This document shows, one piece after another, positions 150 to 20,240 of a DNA stretch of 20,240 nt. Each line of letters begins with the position of its first letter. The stretch's first letter is position 1. This stretch comes from Armatimonadota bacterium (GTDB lineage Bacteria; Armatimonadota; Armatimonadia; Armatimonadales; Armatimonadaceae): positions 1 through 20,240 of the forward strand of contig JAYUUO010000312.1 in assembly GCA_043754515.1 (NCBI GenBank), in the 5' to 3' direction. A program made the translations under genes and the position numbers. The notes under the pieces were generated by a model. That model was not told the origin of the DNA. It did not search any database and saw nothing but the letters and a program-made list of their open reading frames with translations.

Positions 150-192
150 CGTGCGTGCGACAGAACCGCGCGACCGTTCAACGAAAGAAGCT

Positions 193-507
193 ATGCGAAA
201 AGATACAAACAAAGTCCGCATCCGTTTACGCGCTTTTGACCACCGTTTGCTGGATCAATCGGCGGAGAAGATCGTGGAAACCGTGCGACGAACCGGCGCG
301 CGTATTAGCGGCCCGGTGTTGCTACCGACCGAAAAGCGGCGATTCACCGTCCAGCGCTCCGCCACCATTGACAAAGAGTCCATGGAGCACTTCGAGTTGC
401 GGACACACAAGCGACTGATAGACATACTCAGCCCCGGCCCGAAGACCATTGACGCCCTGATGCGCTTGGATCTGCCGAGCGGCGTTGACATCGAGATCAA
501 ACTTTAA
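193..507 (+). CDS. rpsJ: 30S ribosomal protein S10 (uS10)
   Basis: [18 protein letters not shown]...[13 protein letters not shown]...[16 protein letters not shown] at 193 gives the typical length of 104 aa. Confidence 0.98.
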
Positions 508-611
508 CAAGGAAAGAACCGCGTCACGCAGGGAACCGCTTTCCGCCATTCTTTAGAGCTAAGAGAAATGTGGTCGGCTGGTCTCCTCAGGTGCGCCGTG
601 GAGGATAGAGA

Positions 612-1295
612 ATGGCTGTACGTGGGATGCTCGGCAAAAAAGTCGGCATGACACAGATTTTTGATACGGATGGCAAGGTGATCCCGGTGACGGTGGTGGC
701 GACCGAGCCGAACGTGATCTCCCAGGTGAGGACTGTTGAGAAGGATGGGTATTCCGCCGCGCAACTCGCCTACCAGGAGATCAAGGTGACCCGACTGACC
801 CGCCCGGCGCAGGGGCACTTCGCCGCCGCCGGGATCGCGCCGATGAAGTATCTGTGCGAGTTCGACATTCAAGAGGGTTCGACAGCGACCGTGGGAGAGA
901 CGATCACGCCGACCGATGTTTTCACGGTCGGGGAGCGAATTCAAATCGCGGGTGTGTCGAAGGGTAAGGGCTTCGCGGGCGTCGTGAAGCGGTACCACTT
1001 CCGGGGCCAGGAAGCGTCGCACGGCTCGTCCTTGAACGGGCGTAAGCCGATGTCGTCGGGCGCGACCGACGCCGCGCGTACCTTCAAAGGCACGCGCAAA
1101 CCGGGCCGCATGGGCAACGAACGCGTCACCCAACAGGGCTTGAAGCTGATCCAGATTGATGCTGACCGCAACATCGTTCTGATTAAGGGAGCGATCCCCG
1201 GCGCGAACGGCGGCCTAGTGTATCTAGAGAAGATGCACCGCGTGATCCGCGAGCCGCAGCAGGCGGTTCAGGTCAAATCCAGCAAGAAGAAATAA
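612..1295 (+). CDS. rplC: 50S ribosomal protein L3 (uL3)
   Basis: [35 protein letters not shown] and KGAIPG motifs; SD GGAGGA upstream. Confidence 0.98.
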
Positions 1296-1314
1296 TCTTC
1301 CTGCTTCCTGCCGC

Positions 1315-1460
1315 GAGCGGCGTGTGTCACGCCGCTCCTTACAGCCGGGCGCACTTTCGCGTCCGGCGGGCGGGGATGCCGACCAACCGTCGGCGTTCTC
1401 GTCCCCTCAAGCGGATAGCTCACGGCGGCGGTTGCGAAATCAACCGACGTCGGTATCCGC
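1315..1460 (+). other. Array of four consecutive RNA hairpins in the ~265-nt rplC-rplD spacer
   Basis: Stems at 1315-1337 (10 bp perfect), 1344-1367 (9 bp), 1368-1404 (16 bp including G-U) and 1411-1460 (GCGGATA/TATCCGC enclosing CGGTTG/CAACCG). Confidence 0.6.
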
Positions 1461-1560
1461 GCCGTGCTGAAAGCCGCGCCTCCAGCCGGATCGCTCATCC
1501 CGATTCGGTACGCCGCGACTGTCGTATACGGCTTATGCTGACTACAATGGAGAAATGAAT

Positions 1561-2277
1561 ATGCCTACCGTGGCAATAAAAACGAAGGACGGCTCGTCCG
1601 CCGGGGAGATCGTTCTATCGGAACGAGTCTTCGGCGCGAAGCTGAACATCCCCCTGATTCACCAGGCGGTGAAGGCGGAACTAGAAAATAAACGACAGGG
1701 CACGAAAAACTCGCTCGGTCGTTCCGACATGGACTCGGGCGGCGCGAAGCCGTATAAGCAAAAGGGAACCGGCCGCGCCCGACAGGGTTCGACCGCCGCG
1801 CCGCACTACCGACATGGTGGCAAGGCGTTGTCTTTCCACCCTCGCGATATGGGGCACGCCTTCCCGAAGAAGATGCGCCGCGGAGCGATCCGCTCCGCGC
1901 TGTCCGCGAAACTCGCCGACGGCGAGATGTTCATCGTGGAAGAAGTGCCGCTGAACGGCGTGATCTCGACCAAGGTCGCGGCGGCGTTTCTGAGCGGCGT
2001 CACTTCAAACGCCCGGAAGAGTCTAGTCGTCGTGGAGTCGCACGGAGACATCGTGATTAAGTCGGTGCGTAACATCGCCGGTGTGACCGTCCGGGTCGCG
2101 CCGGAGTTCTCGGCGCGCGACGTCGTGGACGGCGGCGTGGTGATAATGACGCGCGGCGCGGTCGCGAAGATCGAAGCACTGCTCGGCGACAAGATCGAAG
2201 CGGAGCCGAATGGCGAGTCCGGGATTGTTGCCTCGACTGAAACGCTTATCGCCACGGAAGGGGAAACCAATGCCTGA
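1561..2277 (+). CDS. rplD: 50S ribosomal protein L4 (uL4) with acidic C-terminal tail
   Basis: RQGT...GGAKPYKQKGTGRARQGS...GG...PKKMRRGAIRSALS. Start is 1561 (GGAG 8 nt upstream) or 1555. Confidence 0.97.
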   Translation: MPTVAIKTKDGSSAGEIVLSERVFGAKLNIPLIHQAVKAELENKRQGTKNSLGRSDMDSGGAKPYKQKGTGRARQGSTAAPHYRHGGKALSFHPRDMGHAFPKKMRRGAIRSALSAKLADGEMFIVEEVPLNGVISTKVAAAFLSGVTSNARKSLVVVESHGDIVIKSVRNIAGVTVRVAPEFSARDVVDGGVVIMTRGAVAKIEALLGDKIEAEPNGESGIVASTETLIATEGETNA

Positions 2278-2587
2278 TCTTTATCAGATTATCGAGCGTC
2301 CGCTCATCACGGAAAAGGCGTTGAGCCTTTCCAGCAAGAACCAGTACGCCTTCGTGGTTCACAAGAACGCGAACAAGCACCAGATCAAGGAAGCCGTCGA
2401 GTCGCTGTTCACGCAACCGAACGGTGAGAAACTTACCGTCGCGACGGTGAACACGATCAACCTCAAGCCCAAGGTGAAGCGGTTCCGCGCCTTCGGTCGG
2501 GTGACGGTCGGCAAGGCGGGTGGCATCAAGAAAGCCTTTGTCACGCTTGTCGCCGGTCAGACGATTCAGATATACGAGGGGGTTTAA
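2270..2587 (+). CDS. rplW: 50S ribosomal protein L23 (uL23)
   Basis: IIERPLITEKA...YAFVVHKNANKHQIKEAVESLF...VNTIN...KKAFVTL. The ATG overlaps the rplD end. Confidence 0.96.
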   Translation: MPDLYQIIERPLITEKALSLSSKNQYAFVVHKNANKHQIKEAVESLFTQPNGEKLTVATVNTINLKPKVKRFRAFGRVTVGKAGGIKKAFVTLVAGQTIQIYEGV

Positions 2588-2592
2588 CGTAA

Positions 2593-3426
2593 ATGGCTGT
2601 ACGAAAATACAAACCCGTAACGCCCGGTCGGCGCTTCATGGCGATCGCCTCTTACAAAGAGATCACGAAGGGCAAGCCGGAGAAGGCTCTTGTCGCGCCG
2701 CTCAGGAAGTTCGGCGGACGTAACAACACGGGCAAGATGACGATCCGCAACCACGGCGGTGGCAACAAGCGGATGTACCGCCTGATTGACTTCAAACGGC
2801 AGAAGGACGGCATGATGGCGGATGTGATCGCGATCGAGTATGATCCGAACCGCACTTCGCGCATCGCGCTGATCCAGTACGCGGATGGCCAGAAGTCTTA
2901 CATCATCGCTCCGAACGGCGTCACGGTCGGGGACAAAATCTCCTCCGGCGCGGACGCGGATATCAAGCCGGGTTGCGCTCTACCGCTCCAGAATATCCCG
3001 GTCGGGACGCTGATCCACAATGTGGAACTGCATCCGGGCCGGGGCGGTCAGATGGCGCGATCGGCGGGGAACTACGCGCAGTTGATGGCGAAGGAAGAAA
3101 GATACGCGCTTCTGCGTCTGCCTTCGAGCGAAATGCGCCGTGTGCTCATCGTCTGCCGCGCGACCGTCGGTCAGGTCGGCAATCTGGACCACGAGAACGA
3201 GAAGATGGGAAAAGCAGGCAAGAACCGCTGGCTAGGTCGGACGCCACACACCCGTGGCGTCGTGATGAACCCACGAGACCACCCGCATGGTGGTGGCGAG
3301 GGTAAGTCGCCGGTCGGTCGGAAGAAGGGACCTGTTTCGGCGACGGGCGTGTTGGCACTCGGTTTCAAGACCCGGCGCAACAAGTCCACTGATAAGTACA
3401 TCGTCAAGCGACGCAACTCTAAGTAA
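2593..3426 (+). CDS. rplB: 50S ribosomal protein L2 (uL2)
   Basis: [23 protein letters not shown] and [17 protein letters not shown] motifs. Confidence 0.99.
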
Positions 3427-3566
3427 TCCCACCGGGGCACGCTGGTTGCGTCCATGTTGGCAGGTATGGTTTAGGCCGCCTGACCACGCGGAAAACGGCG
3501 GGGTTTCCTGTTCCCTTTTGCTATGTGCGAGGGGGGGGGATCCGCCGGACACCGCAGGAGAATATT

Positions 3567-3854
3567 ATGGGACGTTCTTTAAAGAAGGGTCCGTTCGCGG
3601 AACCGAAATTACTCGAAAAGATAGAGGGGATGAATGAGCGGGGCGAGAAGCGCATCGTGAAGACGTGGTCGCGCCGCTCTACTATTTTTCCCCAGTTCAT
3701 CGGGCACACGTTCGCCGTCCATGACGGCAAGAAACATATCCCCGTTCTGGTGACGGAGAATATGGTTGGCCACAAACTAGGCGAGTTCGCCCAGACGCGC
3801 CCCTTTAAGGGACACGCGGGTGGCACCGGTCAATCATCGAAAGTGCGGAAGTAA
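3567..3854 (+). CDS. rpsS: 30S ribosomal protein S19 (uS19)
   Basis: [10 protein letters not shown]...[11 protein letters not shown]...[16 protein letters not shown] upstream of ATG 3567. Confidence 0.98.
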
Positions 3855-3872
3855 GGAGCGACAGACACTACT

Positions 3873-4427
3873 ATGGAAGCAAAAGCCACCGCGAAGTATG
3901 TCCGTGCCACTCCGCGCAAAGTACGATTTGTTCTGCAAACGATCAAAGGCAAGTATGCGCAAGACGCATTGAACATGCTCCGCTTTATCCCGAACCAGGC
4001 CGCCGACGAGATCGCGAACGTCCTGAAGTCAGCCATGGCGAACGCCGTCACGAACCACGGCATGTCGGGCGAGTACCTAATGGTCGCGAACTCGTTCGTT
4101 GACCCAGGTCCGACGCAGAAGCGTGTCCAGCCGCGTGCGCAAGGGCGGGCGTACCGCATCCTGAAGCGCACGAGCCATATCACGGTTATCGTCGAGGAGG
4201 GCACGCCGCCCCCGACCACTGGACAGCGCGAGTTGGAGATCAAGCGACGCGGGCCGAAGCCGCCGTTGCTCGCCATGATCGCGTCACCCGTGATAGCCCC
4301 GGCTCCGGAAGCTGCGCCGGTCGAGGAGATCGCGCCGGTCGCGACGGATACGATAACCGAAGTCGCGGATGCGACTACAGACGCCGCCCCGGTCGCCGAG
4401 CACACGGCCACGGAAGGGCAGGAGTAA
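3873..4427 (+). CDS. rplV: 50S ribosomal protein L22 (uL22) with ~70-aa Pro/Ala/acidic C-terminal extension
   Basis: PRKVR...SAMANA...GPTQKRVQPRAQGRAYRILKRTSHITV core, followed by a low-complexity tail. Confidence 0.97.
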   Translation: MEAKATAKYVRATPRKVRFVLQTIKGKYAQDALNMLRFIPNQAADEIANVLKSAMANAVTNHGMSGEYLMVANSFVDPGPTQKRVQPRAQGRAYRILKRTSHITVIVEEGTPPPTTGQRELEIKRRGPKPPLLAMIASPVIAPAPEAAPVEEIAPVATDTITEVADATTDAAPVAEHTATEGQE

Positions 4428-4430
4428 CGC

Positions 4431-5477
4431 ATGGGACATAAAATTAACCCGATCGGGTTCCGCATAGGTGTGATTCGGGATGCGGACAGCAAGTGGTACG
4501 CGGATAAGAAAAACCTGCCACGTCTGCTTCGCGAAGATTATGACATCCGTCTGATCGTGAAGAAGCGCAAGGGATGGGACAACGCGGCCATCGCGAAGAC
4601 GGAGATTGAGCGACAGGCGAACCAGGTAACCGTCACGCTCCACACCGCGAAGCCTGGTATCATCATCGGGCGCGGCGGCAAGGGTATTGACGATCTGAAG
4701 GCGGACCTCGAGAAGCTGACCAAAAAAGTGGTGCGCGTCAATGTCCAGGAGATTCGCCACCTGGAGACGAACGCGCAACTGGTCGCGGAATCTATCGCGC
4801 AACAGATCGAAAAGCGTATCGGTTACAAGCGTGCCATGCGGCAGGCCGTAACCCGCGCCATGAAACTCGGCGTTCGTGGAATCCGGTGCGCGTGTGCCGG
4901 TCGTTTGGGCGGCGCGGAAATGGCTCGGCGCGAGCAGGATCGTCAGGGGAAGATCCCATTGCACACGCTCCGCGCGGACATTGACTACGGCTTCGACGAG
5001 GCGTTGACCCAGTACGGTCACATCGGCGTTAAGGTCTGGATCTATAAGGGCGACATCCTCCCCGGTGCGCGGCGTCCGGTCGAGGCACCGGCGGCTCCGC
5101 GACCGGAACGGCGTGATGATCGCCGTGATCGGCGCGACGGTGGTCGTGATGGGGGCCGCGACGGCGGCGGGCGTGACGGCGGACGCGGCGGCTATGGCGG
5201 CGGCGGGCGTGACGGCGGTGGCGGCGGTCGCCCCGGCGGCGGGTACGGCGGCGGTGGCAGCGGCCGTCCTGGTGGCGGTGGCGGATTCGGCGGCGGTGGA
5301 TATGGCGGCGGCGGTCGCCCCGGTGGCGGCGGCGGGTTCGGCGGTAACCGCGGGCCGGGCAACGGCATGGGCGGCGGCCCACGTCCTCAGGGCGGCGGGG
5401 ACCGCGCCGGCGGGACATATACGGGTGGCGGTTCGTACACGACAGCCGCGCCTCCCACTACGGGCGGCGAAGGCTAA
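4431..5477 (+). CDS. rpsC: 30S ribosomal protein S3 (uS3) with long Gly/Arg-rich tail
   Basis: [45 protein letters not shown] and GVKVWIYKG motifs. Confidence 0.98.
5101..5440 (+). repeat. GGC-rich low-complexity coding repeats ([21 protein letters not shown] units) in the rpsC tail
   Basis: Imperfect direct repeats visible in both DNA and protein. Confidence 0.85.
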
Positions 5478-5497
5478 ACGAAAGGAAACTATAGCAA

Positions 5498-5992
5498 ATG
5501 CCATTACTTTCTCCCAAGCGTGTCAAGTTCCGCCGTATGCACCGCGGACACCGGCGTGGTAAAGCGTCGGGAGGCACGGCGGTGAGTTTCGGGGATTACG
5601 GGATGCAGGCACTCGAATCTTGCTGGATGACGGCGAACCAGATCGAGTCTGCGCGTATCGCGATGACCCGCAAGATCCGGCGCGGCGGAAAGATCTGGAT
5701 TCGGATCTTCCCCGACAAGTCGTATACAAAGAAGCCAGCGGAGACCCGCATGGGTTCCGGTAAGGGTGCGCCCGAGGGCTGGGTCGCGGTGATCAAGCCG
5801 GGGCGCATCCTGTTCGAGATGGCGGGAGTTACCGAGGAGCTAGCAAAAGAGGCGATGCGGCTAGCGTCGCACAAACTTCCGATCAGCGTGAAGTTTGTTT
5901 CCAAGAAGGACATGGAAGCGGGCGCGGCGGCGAAGGCGGTCGCGGAGTTGACCGGCACGAACGACGGCACCGCGACGGAAACGGAAGGATAA
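5498..5992 (+). CDS. rplP: 50S ribosomal protein L16 (uL16) with C-terminal extension
   Basis: [41 protein letters not shown] and KLP motifs. Confidence 0.98.
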
Positions 5993-5998
5993 GAGCAA

Positions 5999-6256
5999 AT
6001 GGCGGACGAGAAACTTTCCGTGATTATCAAGAAACAGCGCGAGGAGTTCGCGGCCATGGACGCCGCTGCTCTGAGAGCGCGGCTGGACGCCGAGAAGAGG
6101 ACGCACTGGACCCTGAAGTTTACACAGGGCAAGCGGATGCTCACCGACACCGCGTCGCTCACCAATTCGCGTAAGACGATAGCGCGGCTGAACATGTATA
6201 TACACCAGATAACCGAGGCCGCTAAAGTAGCGGCGTTCACGGAGGCGGCTGACTAG
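5999..6256 (+). CDS. rpmC: 50S ribosomal protein L29 (uL29), divergent, with terminal extensions
   Basis: Position between rplP and rpsQ; helical pattern ending ...LKFTQG...RKTIARLN, typical of L29. Confidence 0.88.
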
Positions 6257-6258
6257 CG

Positions 6259-6549
6259 ATGGAAGAAACAACAACTGTGGCCACGCAACCCGCGCTCGAG
6301 CGGAACTCCCGGCGCACGTTGCGCGGGGTGGTGACGTCCGACAAGATGATGCAAACCATCGTGATCACGGTCACCCGCACCAAGCAACACCCGCTGTACG
6401 GACGGACGATGAAATCGTCCAAGAAGTACAAGGCGCACGACGAGCACGGCGAGGGCGGCGTCGGCGACACCGTGGAGATCATGGCGTGCCGACCGATCTC
6501 GAAAGAGAAGTCGTGGCGCCTCCTGCGGATACTGGATAAGGCGAAGTAA
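6259..6549 (+). CDS. rpsQ: 30S ribosomal protein S17 (uS17)
   Basis: GVVTSDKM...HPLYG...KKYKAHDE...[16 protein letters not shown]. Confidence 0.98.
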
Positions 6550-6663
6550 TTTGCCCCGCGCCGCCGGTTCTTCCGGCGGTGCCGGGACCGTACGCCGTCC
6601 CCCATTAGACGGGGCGGTAAATGACGGGGCAACCCGCCCGCGTCATTGAAGGAAATATAAACG

Positions 6664-7041
6664 ATGATTATGCAATACACCCGCCTGAAGGCGGCGGACA
6701 ATTCCGGAGCGCGAACGCTTCTGGTGATCCGGATTCTGAAAGGCTCGACCACACATGTCGGGCATGTAGGCGATGTGGTCGTCGCCGCCGTTAAGTCGGC
6801 GACGCCGGGCGCGAACGTGAAAAAGGGCGACGTGGTGAAGGCGGTCATTGTCCGCACAAAGTACCCTATCAAGCGTTCCGACGGCTCGACATTGCGCTTC
6901 GATGAGAACGCCGCCGTGGTACTCAAAGCCAATCTGGAGCCGCAGGGCACCCGCGTTTTCGGCCCGATAGCTCGTGAACTGCGCGAAGCGAGCCGCGCCG
7001 GTGGCATGAAGATCATCTCGCTCGCACCGGAGGTACTGTAA
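6664..7041 (+). CDS. rplN: 50S ribosomal protein L14 (uL14)
   Basis: [41 protein letters not shown] and [10 protein letters not shown] motifs. Confidence 0.98.
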
Positions 7042-7042
7042 A

Positions 7043-7459
7043 ATGCCGAAGCAACCGATCCCTTACGCGGGAAAAATGCGCATCAAGACCGGCGATAACG
7101 TGATGATTATCTCCGGCAGAGACAAGGGAAAGACCGGCAAGGTCATCCAGGTTTTCCCGACACAGGGCAAACTGATCATCGTTGACGAGGTGAACACCCG
7201 CACCGATGAACAGGGCGTTTCCTCGCCGACGCCGCTCAACTCGGCGATCAAGCACGTCAAGGGCCAGCCGACCGCACAGGACCCGAACCCGGTCGGCGGG
7301 CGGATCACGATCCCGCTCCCGATAGCGGTCTGCAAGGTCGCCCTAGTGAACTCGGAAGGCAAGCCGACCCGCATCCGCATCCATGTCGCGGAAGACGGCA
7401 CCCGATCCCGCGTCGCGGTTAAGGGCGGTCAACCGATCCCCGACCCGGCACGCGCTTAA
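7043..7459 (+). CDS. rplX: 50S ribosomal protein L24 (uL24), with insertion
   Basis: KOW motif [21 protein letters not shown]; position between rplN and rplE. Confidence 0.95.
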
Positions 7460-7545
7460 CACCCCTCGCGCCGATGGGCGAACAGTCCAGCGGCGCGAGA
7501 CGACCCTTCGCTTGGAAACCGAAGGAAAGGAATAGATAAACACCG

Positions 7546-8187
7546 ATGGCACGAAAAGACGCGGCTCCCACGGGACCGCAAAACGAACCGGATAACTACG
7601 TTCCGAACTTGCTGAGCTTCTACCGCGACCGCGTGGTGGCCTCCGTGACGAAGGAGTTCGGTTACAAGAATGTGATGCAGGTCCCGAAGATTGACAAGGT
7701 CGTGATCAACATGGGCGTCGGGCAGGCGGGTCAAACCGGCGGCGACGCGAAGCTACTCGACAACGCGATCCGCGACCTGACGCTGATCTCTGGGCAGAAG
7801 CCTGCTGTCTGCGTGGCGAAGAAATCTATCGCTAACTTCCGCCTGCGAGAAGGCGCGAAGATCGGCGCGAAGGTGACGCTACGTGGCACCCGCATGTACG
7901 AGTTCCTCGACCGGCTGTTCAACATCACGCTCCCCCGTGTGCGTGACTTCCAGGGCATCAACCCGAACTCGTTCGACGGGCGCGGCAACTTCGCGATGGG
8001 CATGAAGGAGCAGCTGGTATTCCCCGAGATCGAGTACGACAAGATAGACAAGATCCGCGGCATGGACATCATCATCTGCACCACGGCCATAAACGATGTC
8101 GAAGCGCGGTTCCTGCTCAAGGAGATGGGTCTTCCCTTCCGCCAAGCAGGCGCGACCGGCTCCGGCGGCGCGGTTCGCATGTTGTAG
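7546..8187 (+). CDS. rplE: 50S ribosomal protein L5 (uL5) with short terminal extensions
   Basis: [49 protein letters not shown] and GMDI motifs. Confidence 0.98.
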
Positions 8188-17755: not shown

Positions 17756-19687
17756 CTACGACGCGAGGCGTAGCACGACGCGCCCCCATCGCCCCTCGCT
17801 CGTCGTGGACCGCTCCAGGTCTACGAACAGGGCGGGCGCGTCGCCGAGCGGCGGCACCGTGGCGCGAAACCGCGCGGTGTCGTCCGGCTCGGTAGTGACT
17901 TCGAATCGCACCGGCGGCACCCCTGTCGTGGTCGCCTTGCCCGACTTAATGCGGAGCGCGTCCGGCGTTTCCAGAGTCGCTTCGAGTAGGACCGCGGCCC
18001 CGACGTCGCCCGACTCGCGTACCACCAGTCGGAGCGTTGTCGCGTCTTCCGGCGCGGTGTCGGGGGTCAGCGATTCGAGGATCAGGATCGGCGCGTCCGC
18101 CTTTGCTCCCGCGTGCGTGCCGGGATTCTCCGCGCGTAGCCGCCGCGTCTCCGTCGCCGCCGTGCGGATCTCCAGGGTCAGCGCGGGCCCATTCCCGTTG
18201 CCGCCGACCTGCGCCCGTAGCGTCAGCACCGCGACCTCGGCGGTCGCGGGTAGCAGTTCGAGAGACACATCGGGACGGTACATTTCGAGGACAACGGGGG
18301 CGGGCATGACTTCTCCAATCGGGGCGGGGGCGGTGCCCGCTGTTCCTGCCACTCCGAACTCCGTCGTTCCCTGGGAGCGGGCACTGGTACTGGTAGCGCG
18401 GATCGGGGCGGATGTGTAGGTCGGTACAGATTCAATGGGGACGGCTCGCCGGGCATCACGTCGCGTCCTCTCCCCCGACACAGGAACAGGCGCAGACAGG
18501 AACGAGGGGCGCGCCGCCTCTTCCTCCGCTTCCCTAACGGGTGAGGGGATGGCGACCACTTTCTCCTCTTCATCAGACGACACGGCAATCGCTTCCGGCG
18601 TGATCGTCGGCACGGCAGTCTCCTCTTCAGTAGCCGCGAACGGTACGGTACTCGCGAGTGGCGCGGTGGTTGGCTCGGCCGTGATCGAAGGGTTAGGCAG
18701 GGAGGTTGCGAGTGGCGGCGTCGGCGCGGCTTCCGGCACCGCTTCCCGGATGATTTCCTGCGTTTTCAGAGAGGTAGTGGGGGACACTTCCGCCACGACC
18801 GAGTCGCTGTTCGAAAATGACGCGGGGGGCGCGACGATAGCACCGACTTGCGGCACCCGAATTGCCTCCAATTTTTCCAGAGCCTCGGTATCACTCTCCG
18901 CGCTGAATTGCGACGGATAGGCGACCAGTACTCCGTCCATGCGCGGCAACATGTCCACGTTTCGCACGGCGGCCTCCGGCGCGAACACGGGCGGTGCGGC
19001 GACCAACACGATATCGGCGAGGGGAGCGGCGAGACGAAGAAGGCGATCCCACCGAGTGCCGCTCGTCAAAACTTCCTCTGCCTTTCTGAACACCCCCGCC
19101 GGTAGGAGAAGTAGTCCTTCCGTTCGCTGGGCGAGTTTCAGGAGTGGTTCCAATCGCGTCACGTCACCGCGCAGAAAATCAACGAGTCCCGCAGGCGGAC
19201 CTGAGACCTCTGCCTCCTCTCGTGGCACGAAAAGAGGCAGGTTGTGGAGGAGGGGGTAAGCCACGTCGGCATCGAACACCAGCACCCGGTAGCCGCGCAC
19301 CGCGGCGTCACGCGCTAGGTCGCACACGACTCTCGCCGCCGAGTCGCGCCCTGCCGGGGCGGCATCGAACGCGGTCACCGCGAAGAACCGGGTGGGTTGG
19401 TCGCCCGCCATTGCCTGATCCGGGAGCGAGAGCGCGTCCCAAACCTGCTGGCAGGCATCCTCATTGACAGCCTCCTCCCAGCCCCCCCCTGGCTCAAAAA
19501 CCGCCAGCACCGGGAGCGTCGCGCTGTCTTCGTCCTCATACTCCTGGGAGTCGTCCGCGGCGGGGGGGGGGATCGGCTCTGGATCGGGCGGCGGCACGGG
19601 CTTGCGTTTGCCGAACGAAAAAATAGCGGAGGCAGCGGTACCGACGGCGGTCAGCGCGAGAGGGAGTAAGTAAGGGGCGTGCGGCAT
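17756..19687 (-). CDS. Membrane-anchored protein with degenerate CpsD/CapB (BY-kinase)/MinD-ParA-like P-loop domain, long acidic Pro/Ala/Thr linker and unknown beta-rich C-terminal domain
   Basis: N-terminal hydrophobic helix; RVLVFDAD...P.LH, GLVDFL, LLLLPAG, DIVLVAAPPV and DGVLV follow the BY-kinase motif order. ATG 19687 is preferred because GTG 19699 abuts a -10 box. Confidence 0.72.
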   Translation of the reverse strand: MPHAPYLLPLALTAVGTAASAIFSFGKRKPVPPPDPEPIPPPAADDSQEYEDEDSATLPVLAVFEPGGGWEEAVNEDACQQVWDALSLPDQAMAGDQPTRFFAVTAFDAAPAGRDSAARVVCDLARDAAVRGYRVLVFDADVAYPLLHNLPLFVPREEAEVSGPPAGLVDFLRGDVTRLEPLLKLAQRTEGLLLLPAGVFRKAEEVLTSGTRWDRLLRLAAPLADIVLVAAPPVFAPEAAVRNVDMLPRMDGVLVAYPSQFSAESDTEALEKLEAIRVPQVGAIVAPPASFSNSDSVVAEVSPTTSLKTQEIIREAVPEAAPTPPLATSLPNPSITAEPTTAPLASTVPFAATEEETAVPTITPEAIAVSSDEEEKVVAIPSPVREAEEEAARPSFLSAPVPVSGERTRRDARRAVPIESVPTYTSAPIRATSTSARSQGTTEFGVAGTAGTAPAPIGEVMPAPVVLEMYRPDVSLELLPATAEVAVLTLRAQVGGNGNGPALTLEIRTAATETRRLRAENPGTHAGAKADAPILILESLTPDTAPEDATTLRLVVRESGDVGAAVLLEATLETPDALRIKSGKATTTGVPPVRFEVTTEPDDTARFRATVPPLGDAPALFVDLERSTTSEGRWGRVVLRLAS

Positions 19688-19700
19688 ATCGTTATCCACG

Positions 19701-19910: not shown

Positions 19911-19939
19911 TTGCACGGAGCGTCGAAAGGTGGTATATC
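19911..19939 (+). promoter_or_regulatory. Putative sigma70 promoter for the second tuf
   Basis: TTGCAC (19911-19916), 17-nt spacer ending TGG, TATATC (19934-19939). Confidence 0.6.
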
Positions 19940-19946
19940 AGTCCGG

Positions 19947-20033
19947 CGTGTTGCCTCCTTTTTGGTGAAGGGTCGTTACTCATTTTCTTTGAACGACCGC
20001 TGGTTCGATTCCGGCACGGCGATCGCGAACACG
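19947..20033 (+). ncRNA. tRNA-like cloverleaf element in the tuf 5' leader (not a canonical tRNA)
   Basis: D-like arm CCTTTT-TGGT-GAAGGG (19957-19972), middle stem TCGTT/AACGA with a 14-nt loop, T-arm GCTGG-TTCGATT-CCGGC (19999-20015), and closing stem GTTGCC/GGCGAT or CGTGTT/AACACG. No CCA end. Confidence 0.55.
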
Positions 20034-20057
20034 GACGGAACATTGGTTCCGTCTTCT
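20033..20057 (+). terminator. Leader hairpin, possible attenuator or pause site upstream of tuf
   Basis: GGACGGAAC-ATTG-GTTCCGTCT 9-bp stem followed by only a short pyrimidine run. Confidence 0.35.
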
Positions 20058-20144
20058 GGCTATCGTGCGGGGCTACTGGATAGGGGCACCTGCATAATCT
20101 GAATGACACAGATCGCGCCCGCATACGGCGCGAGGAGCAAACAA

Positions 20145-20240
20145 ATGGCGAAGGCGAAATTCGAGCGTAGCAAGCCACACGTGAACATCGGCACGATCGG
20201 CCACGTGGACCATGGGAAGACGTCCCTGACTGCGGCGATC
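20145..20240 (+). CDS. tuf: Elongation factor Tu, N-terminal 32 codons (partial, cut by window end)
   Basis: [32 protein letters not shown] containing the P-loop [16 protein letters not shown] at 20132-20137. Confidence 0.97.

Follow-up and report, generated by a model that had tools for sequence, protein, structure and literature searches.

Previous work on plant mitochondria has described t-elements, which are non-canonical cloverleaves with a conserved T-arm that lie upstream of mRNAs and do not decode (Forner et al., 2007, PMC1920247). In the Salmonella arrangement thrU-tyrU-glyT-thrT-tufB, a tRNA-Thr(GGT) gene stands directly before tufB (PMC6134099), and tufB control in this organism has been attributed to ribosome speed and Rho (PMC12360218). 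The translation-inactivated tRNA gene tRNA-Other of Bacillus cereus flanks a genomic island and has been proposed to be a structural element in a longer RNA and to act in trans (PMC3399842). Finally, a tRNA-Sec nested in selB links a tRNA or its remnant in cis with the gene of an elongation factor, whose control has been proposed to work through processing (PMC8124441).

Anatomy and identity of the tufB leader element

The window, that is, the whole stretch of 20,240 nucleotides that was analyzed, corresponds to the complete contig C312 of a 5.13-Mb genome that is 92.7% complete. At its 5' end the contig carries the last part of a tuf gene and then rpsJ; its 3' end lies 96 nt into another tuf. 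BLAST in the own genome showed that an identical second tuf start closes contig C277, and contig C211 opens with a tuf end followed by tRNA-Trp; from these contig ends we infer that the tuf starting at 20145 is the tufB-type of two copies. The 647-amino-acid ORF on the opposite strand is divergent, so that no other tRNA genes precede the element, which must have a promoter to itself. The features of the region are the following, with the evidence for each in brackets.

17756 to 19699, minus strand: divergent 647-aa ORF with no Pfam match (ORF list, Pfam scan)
19911 to 19939, plus strand: probable promoter with -35 TTGCAC (19911-19916), a 17-nt spacer and an extended -10 TG-n-TATATC (19934-19939) (sequence, identity in the congener G002)
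19950 to 20023, plus strand: non-decoding tRNA-like structure from the tRNA-Thr(GGT) locus (fold, orthologous-site survey, conservation, locus similarity)
19950 to 19955, plus strand: acceptor-like 5' strand (positions -1 to 5), pairing with 20018-20023 (sequence, fold)
19957 to 19972, plus strand: D-like hairpin of 6 bp, two of them G-U, with a UGGU loop (sequence; pairs kept in G002)
19973 to 19996, plus strand: middle arm at the anticodon-arm position, 5 bp with a U-rich 14-nt loop (sequence; pairs kept in G002)
19999 to 20015, plus strand: T-arm of 5 bp with the loop UUCGAUU (sequence; pairs kept in G002; base rate)
20033 to 20054, plus strand: 9-bp hairpin 3' of the element (fold z -5.19; 7-bp hairpin at the same place in G002)
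20071 to 20099, plus strand: conserved leader block (25/29 identical in G002; 54-55% in the adjoining sequence on both sides)
20113 to 20137, plus strand: 7-bp hairpin (20113-20133) reaching two bases into the Shine-Dalgarno sequence GAGGAG (20132-20137) (alignment, fold)
20145 to 20240, plus strand: start of tuf, tufB-type copy, cut by the contig end (Pfam GTP_EFTU; BLAST in the own genome)

The cloverleaf at 19950-20023 and the tuf ATG at 20145 were read directly from the sequence. An earlier note on this DNA had described a cloverleaf in canonical tRNA order lacking both CCA and a 7-nt anticodon loop, and sequence and fold confirmed it; the 9-bp hairpin reported there was recovered as well. 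The minimum-energy and centroid folds of 19950-20023 both form a four-way junction (z -2.15; 6/200 shuffles as good), and the fold including the flanks (19945-20035) is no better than shuffles (z -1.07; 25/200). The acceptor stem consists only of the pairs -1:73 and 1-5, positions 6-7/66-67 being open, with two unpaired bases between acceptor stem and T-stem, and the element ends with G-1, U1:A72 and U73, with no CCA after position 73. Outside tRNA and tmRNA genes, the 5.13-Mb genome contains 46 T-arms of 5 bp with a T-loop, which corresponds to about 0.0009 expected per 200 nt on one strand; the bare 11-nt T-arm motif is not rare by chance (23/100 shuffles of the 20-kb window).

As for the sigma70-like promoter that the same note had placed upstream, a strict consensus scan of the window returned no site, the last base of the -10 being C. 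The conservation of these positions spoke for it, with 22/29 identical in the congener compared to 50% further upstream. Transcription is predicted to start near 19946, about 4 nt before the element begins. Assembled RNA contigs start at 19971-19972, and a DNA contig starts at 19973 too, which makes them uninformative on the start site. One RNA contig (19971-20178) spans the element into tuf, although it comes from a single sample and may be DNA, and no terminator was found between the element and tuf.

The element at 19950-20023 is not a working tRNA: ARAGORN found no gene in the window, and none at this locus even with relaxed thresholds, Rfam gave no family in the window, canonical tRNA (RF00005) included, and both an anticodon loop and CCA are lacking. 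Compared with RF00005, it has a 14-nt loop in place of the 7-nt anticodon loop on a 5-bp stem, and the T-stem has its 5 bp, but 5/7 acceptor pairs fall short of a 7-bp acceptor stacked on the T-stem. The likeness to tRNA-Sec that had been pointed out earlier turned out to be superficial. The 6-bp D-stem with a 4-nt loop is present, but not the combination of a UCA anticodon, a long acceptor stem, a long variable arm and a score above the cut-off; the window gave no match to RF01852, a search that the note had itself proposed. The congener scored 25.5 bits against a cut-off of 47, and no SelB match exceeded its cut-off in this genome (92.7% complete). A tRNA-Sec identity was rejected on this sub-cut-off score and the absence of a SelB match. 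The free, aminoacylatable CCA end of an EF-Tu-binding tRNA mimic of the tmRNA type is also absent from the window. The form of a t-element is present: the window has a non-canonical cloverleaf whose T-arm fits GGTTCRANYCC, the motif used to screen for t-elements (PMC1920247).

Some further observations concern the tuf copies and tRNA genes. Within 151-8187 of the window, the S10/spc ribosomal cluster ends after rplE and unrelated genes come next, so the cluster is split here; in genome G008 the other tuf copy heads the S10 operon. At this other tuf copy, a strongly conserved leader motif is located 46-95 nt 5' of the start (G000:C277:2403-2425, locus L030, as well as 20 other loci in family f1). 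Its core, ACCTT(G/C)A-N-AA, was found in 21 loci and is preceded by GTCCTCCGGC in 19 of them, and Rfam gave no match at the motif in the six such loci scanned. Judging by likeness, it may be a boxA-like or ribosomal-protein feedback site; the two ends of the 20071-20099 block loosely resemble its two halves. An array of 14 tRNA genes, all on one strand, is located at G000:C219:1249-3101, and ARAGORN called a CUA-anticodon tRNA on contig C138.

The tRNA-Thr(GGT) locus in front of tufB and its relics

We searched 71 genomes of the order, 64 of which had at least one readable region upstream of a tuf start. A tufB-type leader was readable in 53, no such copy being assembled in the other 11; G001 and G003 lack an assembled tufB copy. 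An intact tRNA-Thr(GGT) lies directly 5' of tufB in 29 of the 53 genomes (18 genera), a non-decoding tRNA-like structure without anticodon loop in 20, and neither tRNA nor relic in four. tufB is thereby shown to have been ancestrally co-transcribed behind tRNA-Thr(GGT). All 20 carriers of the relic possess an intact tRNA-Thr(GGT) elsewhere. In G005, G016 and G047 it has a separate promoter and lies about 300 nt upstream; in G045 the upstream distance is 2.4 kb, and in the genome analyzed here it is found on contig C140. Decoding is thus shown to have been taken over by a second tRNA-Thr(GGT) copy in this lineage. Of the 50 genomes sampled outside the order, 30 carry the intact tRNA no more than 300 nt from a tuf; in the sample of 83 loci from these 50 genomes, a non-fusA tuf was never preceded by an orphan T-arm.

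Promoter, leader and T-arm of the relic loci are similar to those of intact tRNA-Thr(GGT) loci, for the window the intact loci of its genus (matched by only 0-3 of 500 shuffles), and the likeness in promoter and leader points to duplication of the whole locus. CCA is encoded in none of the 21 displaced intact copies, in 20/29 in-place copies and in 11/14 relics of family f2, a pattern from which the f2 relic is probably the original copy. In the window, the first hairpin (19957-19972) aligned to the Thr anticodon arm with a score of 20.5 and to the D-arm with 8.0; the ancestry of the first two hairpins is ambiguous, and the cloverleaf may have been partly rebuilt. Resemblance of this hairpin to the Thr anticodon arm, as well as a loop identical in both members of genus g1, would be expected if threonyl-tRNA synthetase read the UGGU loop as a mimic of the Thr anticodon and linked tufB to threonine supply. 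We find this hardly credible, as the GGU loop is missing from most other elements, counts 4 nt and not 7, and contains a UGG that is equally a D-loop feature.

The displaced tRNA-Thr(GGT) is a putative integration site, with phage integrases encoded just 3' of it at L272 (G061) and L265 (G068), that is, in two of the three ORFs scanned; partial second copies of tRNA-Thr(GGT) are found in G068, G029, G040 and G056. A leftover of integration, made up of the 3' half only, is possible in principle and less favoured than whole-locus duplication because of the likeness in promoter and leader. That the element is functionless, as such a leftover or as a neutrally decaying pseudo-tRNA, would fit the intact copy present in every carrier, its loss in four genomes, the integrases beside the tRNA in G061 and G068 and the eroded acceptor stem in G002. 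Nevertheless, we consider this very improbable: the resemblance of promoter and leader to the tRNA locus argues for duplication of the whole locus, and the stems change only by pair-keeping substitutions while four-fold sites are 45-70% identical. The alternative of a decayed tRNA raised in the earlier note therefore held in that the element is a relic of the tRNA that stands intact there in 29/53 genomes, and failed in that it is not simply decaying.

In a tree built on five ribosomal proteins and covering 30 genomes (G005 was left out for want of an rplB match), carriers occupy three separate places: genera g1 and g3 together (support 100), G045 and G047 inside g5 (100), and g14, which belongs to another family. 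One genome with an intact tRNA is nested among the g14 carriers with weak support (54-71). Loss of decoding with retention of the shape is thus placed by the tree as having arisen separately in at least three related lineages. Covariance models recovered a single strong copy in each training genome, located at tufB; most weaker matches are intact tRNA-Thr(GGT), and nine others that were checked are ordinary tRNAs. A two-sequence model run over 32 genomes of the family returned only its two training sequences and one marginal match. One metagenome pattern gave no match of the window's own type, and a looser one gave 21 matches, of which four are tuf starts and two of these the same leaders as in G005 and G016.

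Two peculiarities of the tRNA-Thr(GGT) genes were also recorded. Position 55 of the T-loop is C, not U, in all 32 intact copies read (e.g., L056:773-844), and the canonical U is found at this position in several relics, the one in the window included. At L102 (G062), the only tRNA-Thr(GGT) found in the genome stands in place before tufB, nested among relic-bearing species, and has one mismatched acceptor pair (6/7).

Conservation of the shape and its possible role in processing

The element of the window is 58/74 identical (78%) to that of its congener G002, compared to 50-55% in the flanks and 59% at four-fold sites of rplB. None of the 16 pairs in the D-like, middle and T-stems is lost, although five vary, two of them on both sides; the shuffle control on this pair is uninformative with only two sequences (114/500). 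The D-like hairpin keeps its 6/6 pairs, with two G-U turned into Watson-Crick pairs and an identical loop, and the middle arm and the T-arm each keep 5/5 pairs with one double change. The 14-nt middle loop is 12/14 identical, and the acceptor stem is poorly kept (3/7 pairs in register). In the 14 species of g14 (family f2), 96.9% of 196 cells are paired, a figure that overstates the pairing because the structure was derived from the same alignment and the species are related; 5/14 pairs show double changes, none of 500 shuffles was as high, and slid controls gave 36-60%. In G005, where the anticodon loop has grown to 16 nt, the relic differs from its paralogue 300 nt away by four double changes, with none of 16 pairs broken. 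Covariation shows the tRNA-like shape to be under purifying selection. The idea that the elbow parts are kept while decoding is lost was borne out by these compensating changes (window and G002, g14, G005).

The best-kept parts are the T-loop, a loop that contains GG, and the acceptor end. The elements of family f2 have U-1 and a purine at 73 in 14/14 cases and all end in CCA or UCA (CCA in 11/14), and the distance from the T-loop to position 73 is 12 nt in 13/14. Pair 49:65 is broken in 9/14 of them, and the T-stem is reduced to 3 bp in G045 and G047. Positions -1 and 73 are paired in 20/20 elements as against 3/53 intact copies and 26/68 tRNAs of the genome, a contrast that is mild evidence, since it comes from only three or four independent lineages.

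EF-Tu contacts the T-stem and the aminoacyl end of a tRNA and is not known to touch the T-loop. The earlier note had proposed that the element senses EF-Tu, with RNase P as another option; as a feedback sensor, surplus EF-Tu would bind its acceptor/T-stem and lower tufB expression. A single strong copy in each genome, confined to the site before tufB and arisen three times, would suit such a sensor, and so would the autoregulation of tufB in Salmonella (PMC12360218), the coupling of an elongation-factor gene to its own tRNA proposed for selB/selC (PMC8124441) and the high abundance of EF-Tu (PMC6134099). The results did not bear the proposal out, and we regard it as unlikely. The position before tufB is already accounted for by ancestry, the contact pair 49:65 is broken in most f2 elements and the T-stem shortened in G045 and G047, and the best-kept part is the T-loop, which is not a known EF-Tu contact. 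The tmRNA binds EF-Tu after aminoacylation (PMC3985003), whereas an embedded, CCA-less element cannot be charged, and the Salmonella mechanism works through ribosome speed and Rho, not through binding (PMC12360218).

Folding 20 leaders with and without the element gave no consistent change in the accessibility of the Shine-Dalgarno sequence and AUG; a thermodynamic switch at the ribosome-binding site was rejected on these grounds, and the result speaks against an EF-Tu sensor as well. Regarding a Rho-site switch of the Salmonella type, thermodynamic folding of the 20 leaders revealed no consistent leader-CDS pairing and no C-rich trailer, and the search for leader-CDS duplexes returned only long, inconsistent pairings. 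Pairing of the window's CCUCCU with the Shine-Dalgarno sequence and of the 14-nt loop with the start region were discarded too, neither being kept in G002.

The reading that we favour, with about even confidence and by analogy, is that the element would be a bacterial counterpart of t-elements, setting the ends or the stability of the tufB mRNA. The ancestral tRNA-Thr(GGT) preceded tufB, a second copy assumed decoding, and the copy in front of tufB lost its anticodon while purifying selection preserved its elbow and a top half of tRNA-like form. The fold would be recognised by tRNA-processing nucleases, RNase P on the 5' side and RNase Z or E on the 3' side, and this recognition would fix the 5' end and lifetime of the tufB mRNA, as the tRNA did in cis. 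The kept T-loop, GG loop and acceptor end match what these nucleases read, and genes for RNase P RNA, RNase Z, RNase E/G, RNase J and Rho are present in the genome. RNase P is described as recognising the T-stem/loop, the RCC end and base -1 (PMC10465520) and as cutting non-tRNA substrates and mRNAs also (PMC11143913); the D/T-loop elbow is described in PMC10424219.

Several observations weigh on the processing reading. With its irregular acceptor (the G-1, U1:A72 and U73 end, no CCA, and 6-7/66-67 open), and with 3/7 pairs in G002, the element of the window would be a poor textbook substrate of RNase P. Pairing of -1 with 73 can lower access of RNase P to the 3' end (PMC10465520), so that its presence in all 20 elements may slow cutting. 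The RNA contig that runs across the element into tuf suggests that uncut RNA may exist, with the proviso that this single sample may be DNA. The four genomes with neither tRNA nor relic indicate that the element is dispensable, the 3' ends vary between clades in such a way that a single mechanism may not cover all of them, and the conserved 14-nt loop of the window is left unexplained by processing.

Uncut RNA would be the rule if the fold were no nuclease substrate and stayed on the mRNA as a shield, guarding the 5' end from RNase J or E or barring Rho. Its start about 4 nt past the predicted transcription start, the -1:73 pair in 20/20 elements, the RNA contig covering element and tuf and the presence of RNase J, RNase E/G and Rho all agree with a shield of this kind, which we nevertheless hold to be improbable, as any hairpin would do; the kept T-loop, the 12-nt spacing and the CCA of f2 would go unexplained, many f2 leaders have a separate 5' hairpin ahead of the element, and trailers are not C-rich. 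The opposite fate, excision as an uncharged tRNA-like small RNA acting in trans, with the position at tufB only tying its level to growth rate, could account for the CCA/UCA ends in 14/14 f2 elements and the 12/14 identity of the 14-nt loop in the congener, and a regulatory pseudo-tRNA has been described in Bacillus cereus (PMC3399842). This is quite unlikely in our judgement: the middle arm varies in length and sequence between and within clades, and the covariance-model searches found no copy away from tufB.

Relation to described systems and significance

The linkage of tRNA-Thr to tufB is old and widespread and is usually taken as co-expression. The repeated retention of the tRNA shape after decoding had moved suggests an additional cis action of the tRNA on the tufB mRNA. 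We tentatively propose, as one possibility, that the tRNA before tufB both decodes and serves the EF-Tu message in cis, that these two functions have repeatedly been split by duplication, and that the leftover fold lets tRNA-handling capacity tune EF-Tu output. This capacity could consist in competition for RNase P/Z or in EF-Tu itself. If so, nature would offer in these elements a series of minimal tRNA mimics, from which one could tell for which features of the tRNA bacteria keep the tRNA-tufB linkage. The 20 natural variants, which range from a full cloverleaf with a swollen anticodon loop over forms with a reduced D-arm to the rebuilt form of the window, make a cis role directly testable, and they would be bacterial t-element counterparts missed by tRNA finders and Rfam.

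No description of a tRNA-like or t-element tuf leader was found in the openly licensed papers and preprints searched. The new points are that such elements originated repeatedly, that the window has a rebuilt form without CCA, and that the -1:73 pair is convergent. Comparison with the four described systems places the element as follows. With Salmonella it shares the ancestral arrangement of tRNA-Thr(GGT) directly before tufB (PMC6134099), but the tRNA is here non-decoding, and no switch matching control by ribosome speed and Rho (PMC12360218) was found. Like tRNA-Other of Bacillus cereus (PMC3399842), it is an inactivated tRNA gene within a longer RNA, whereas it occupies a housekeeping mRNA leader and shows cross-species covariation. 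The selB case (PMC8124441) shares the tie in cis to an elongation-factor gene; there, a mostly functional tRNA lies inside the 3' end of the ORF, whereas here a non-decoding one lies in the 5' leader. With the plant-mitochondrial t-elements (PMC1920247) it shares the form of a non-decoding cloverleaf upstream of an mRNA; the present elements differ from these in that they are bacterial, go back to a single tRNA gene of the same locus and have arisen repeatedly, and in that their cleavage is a prediction.
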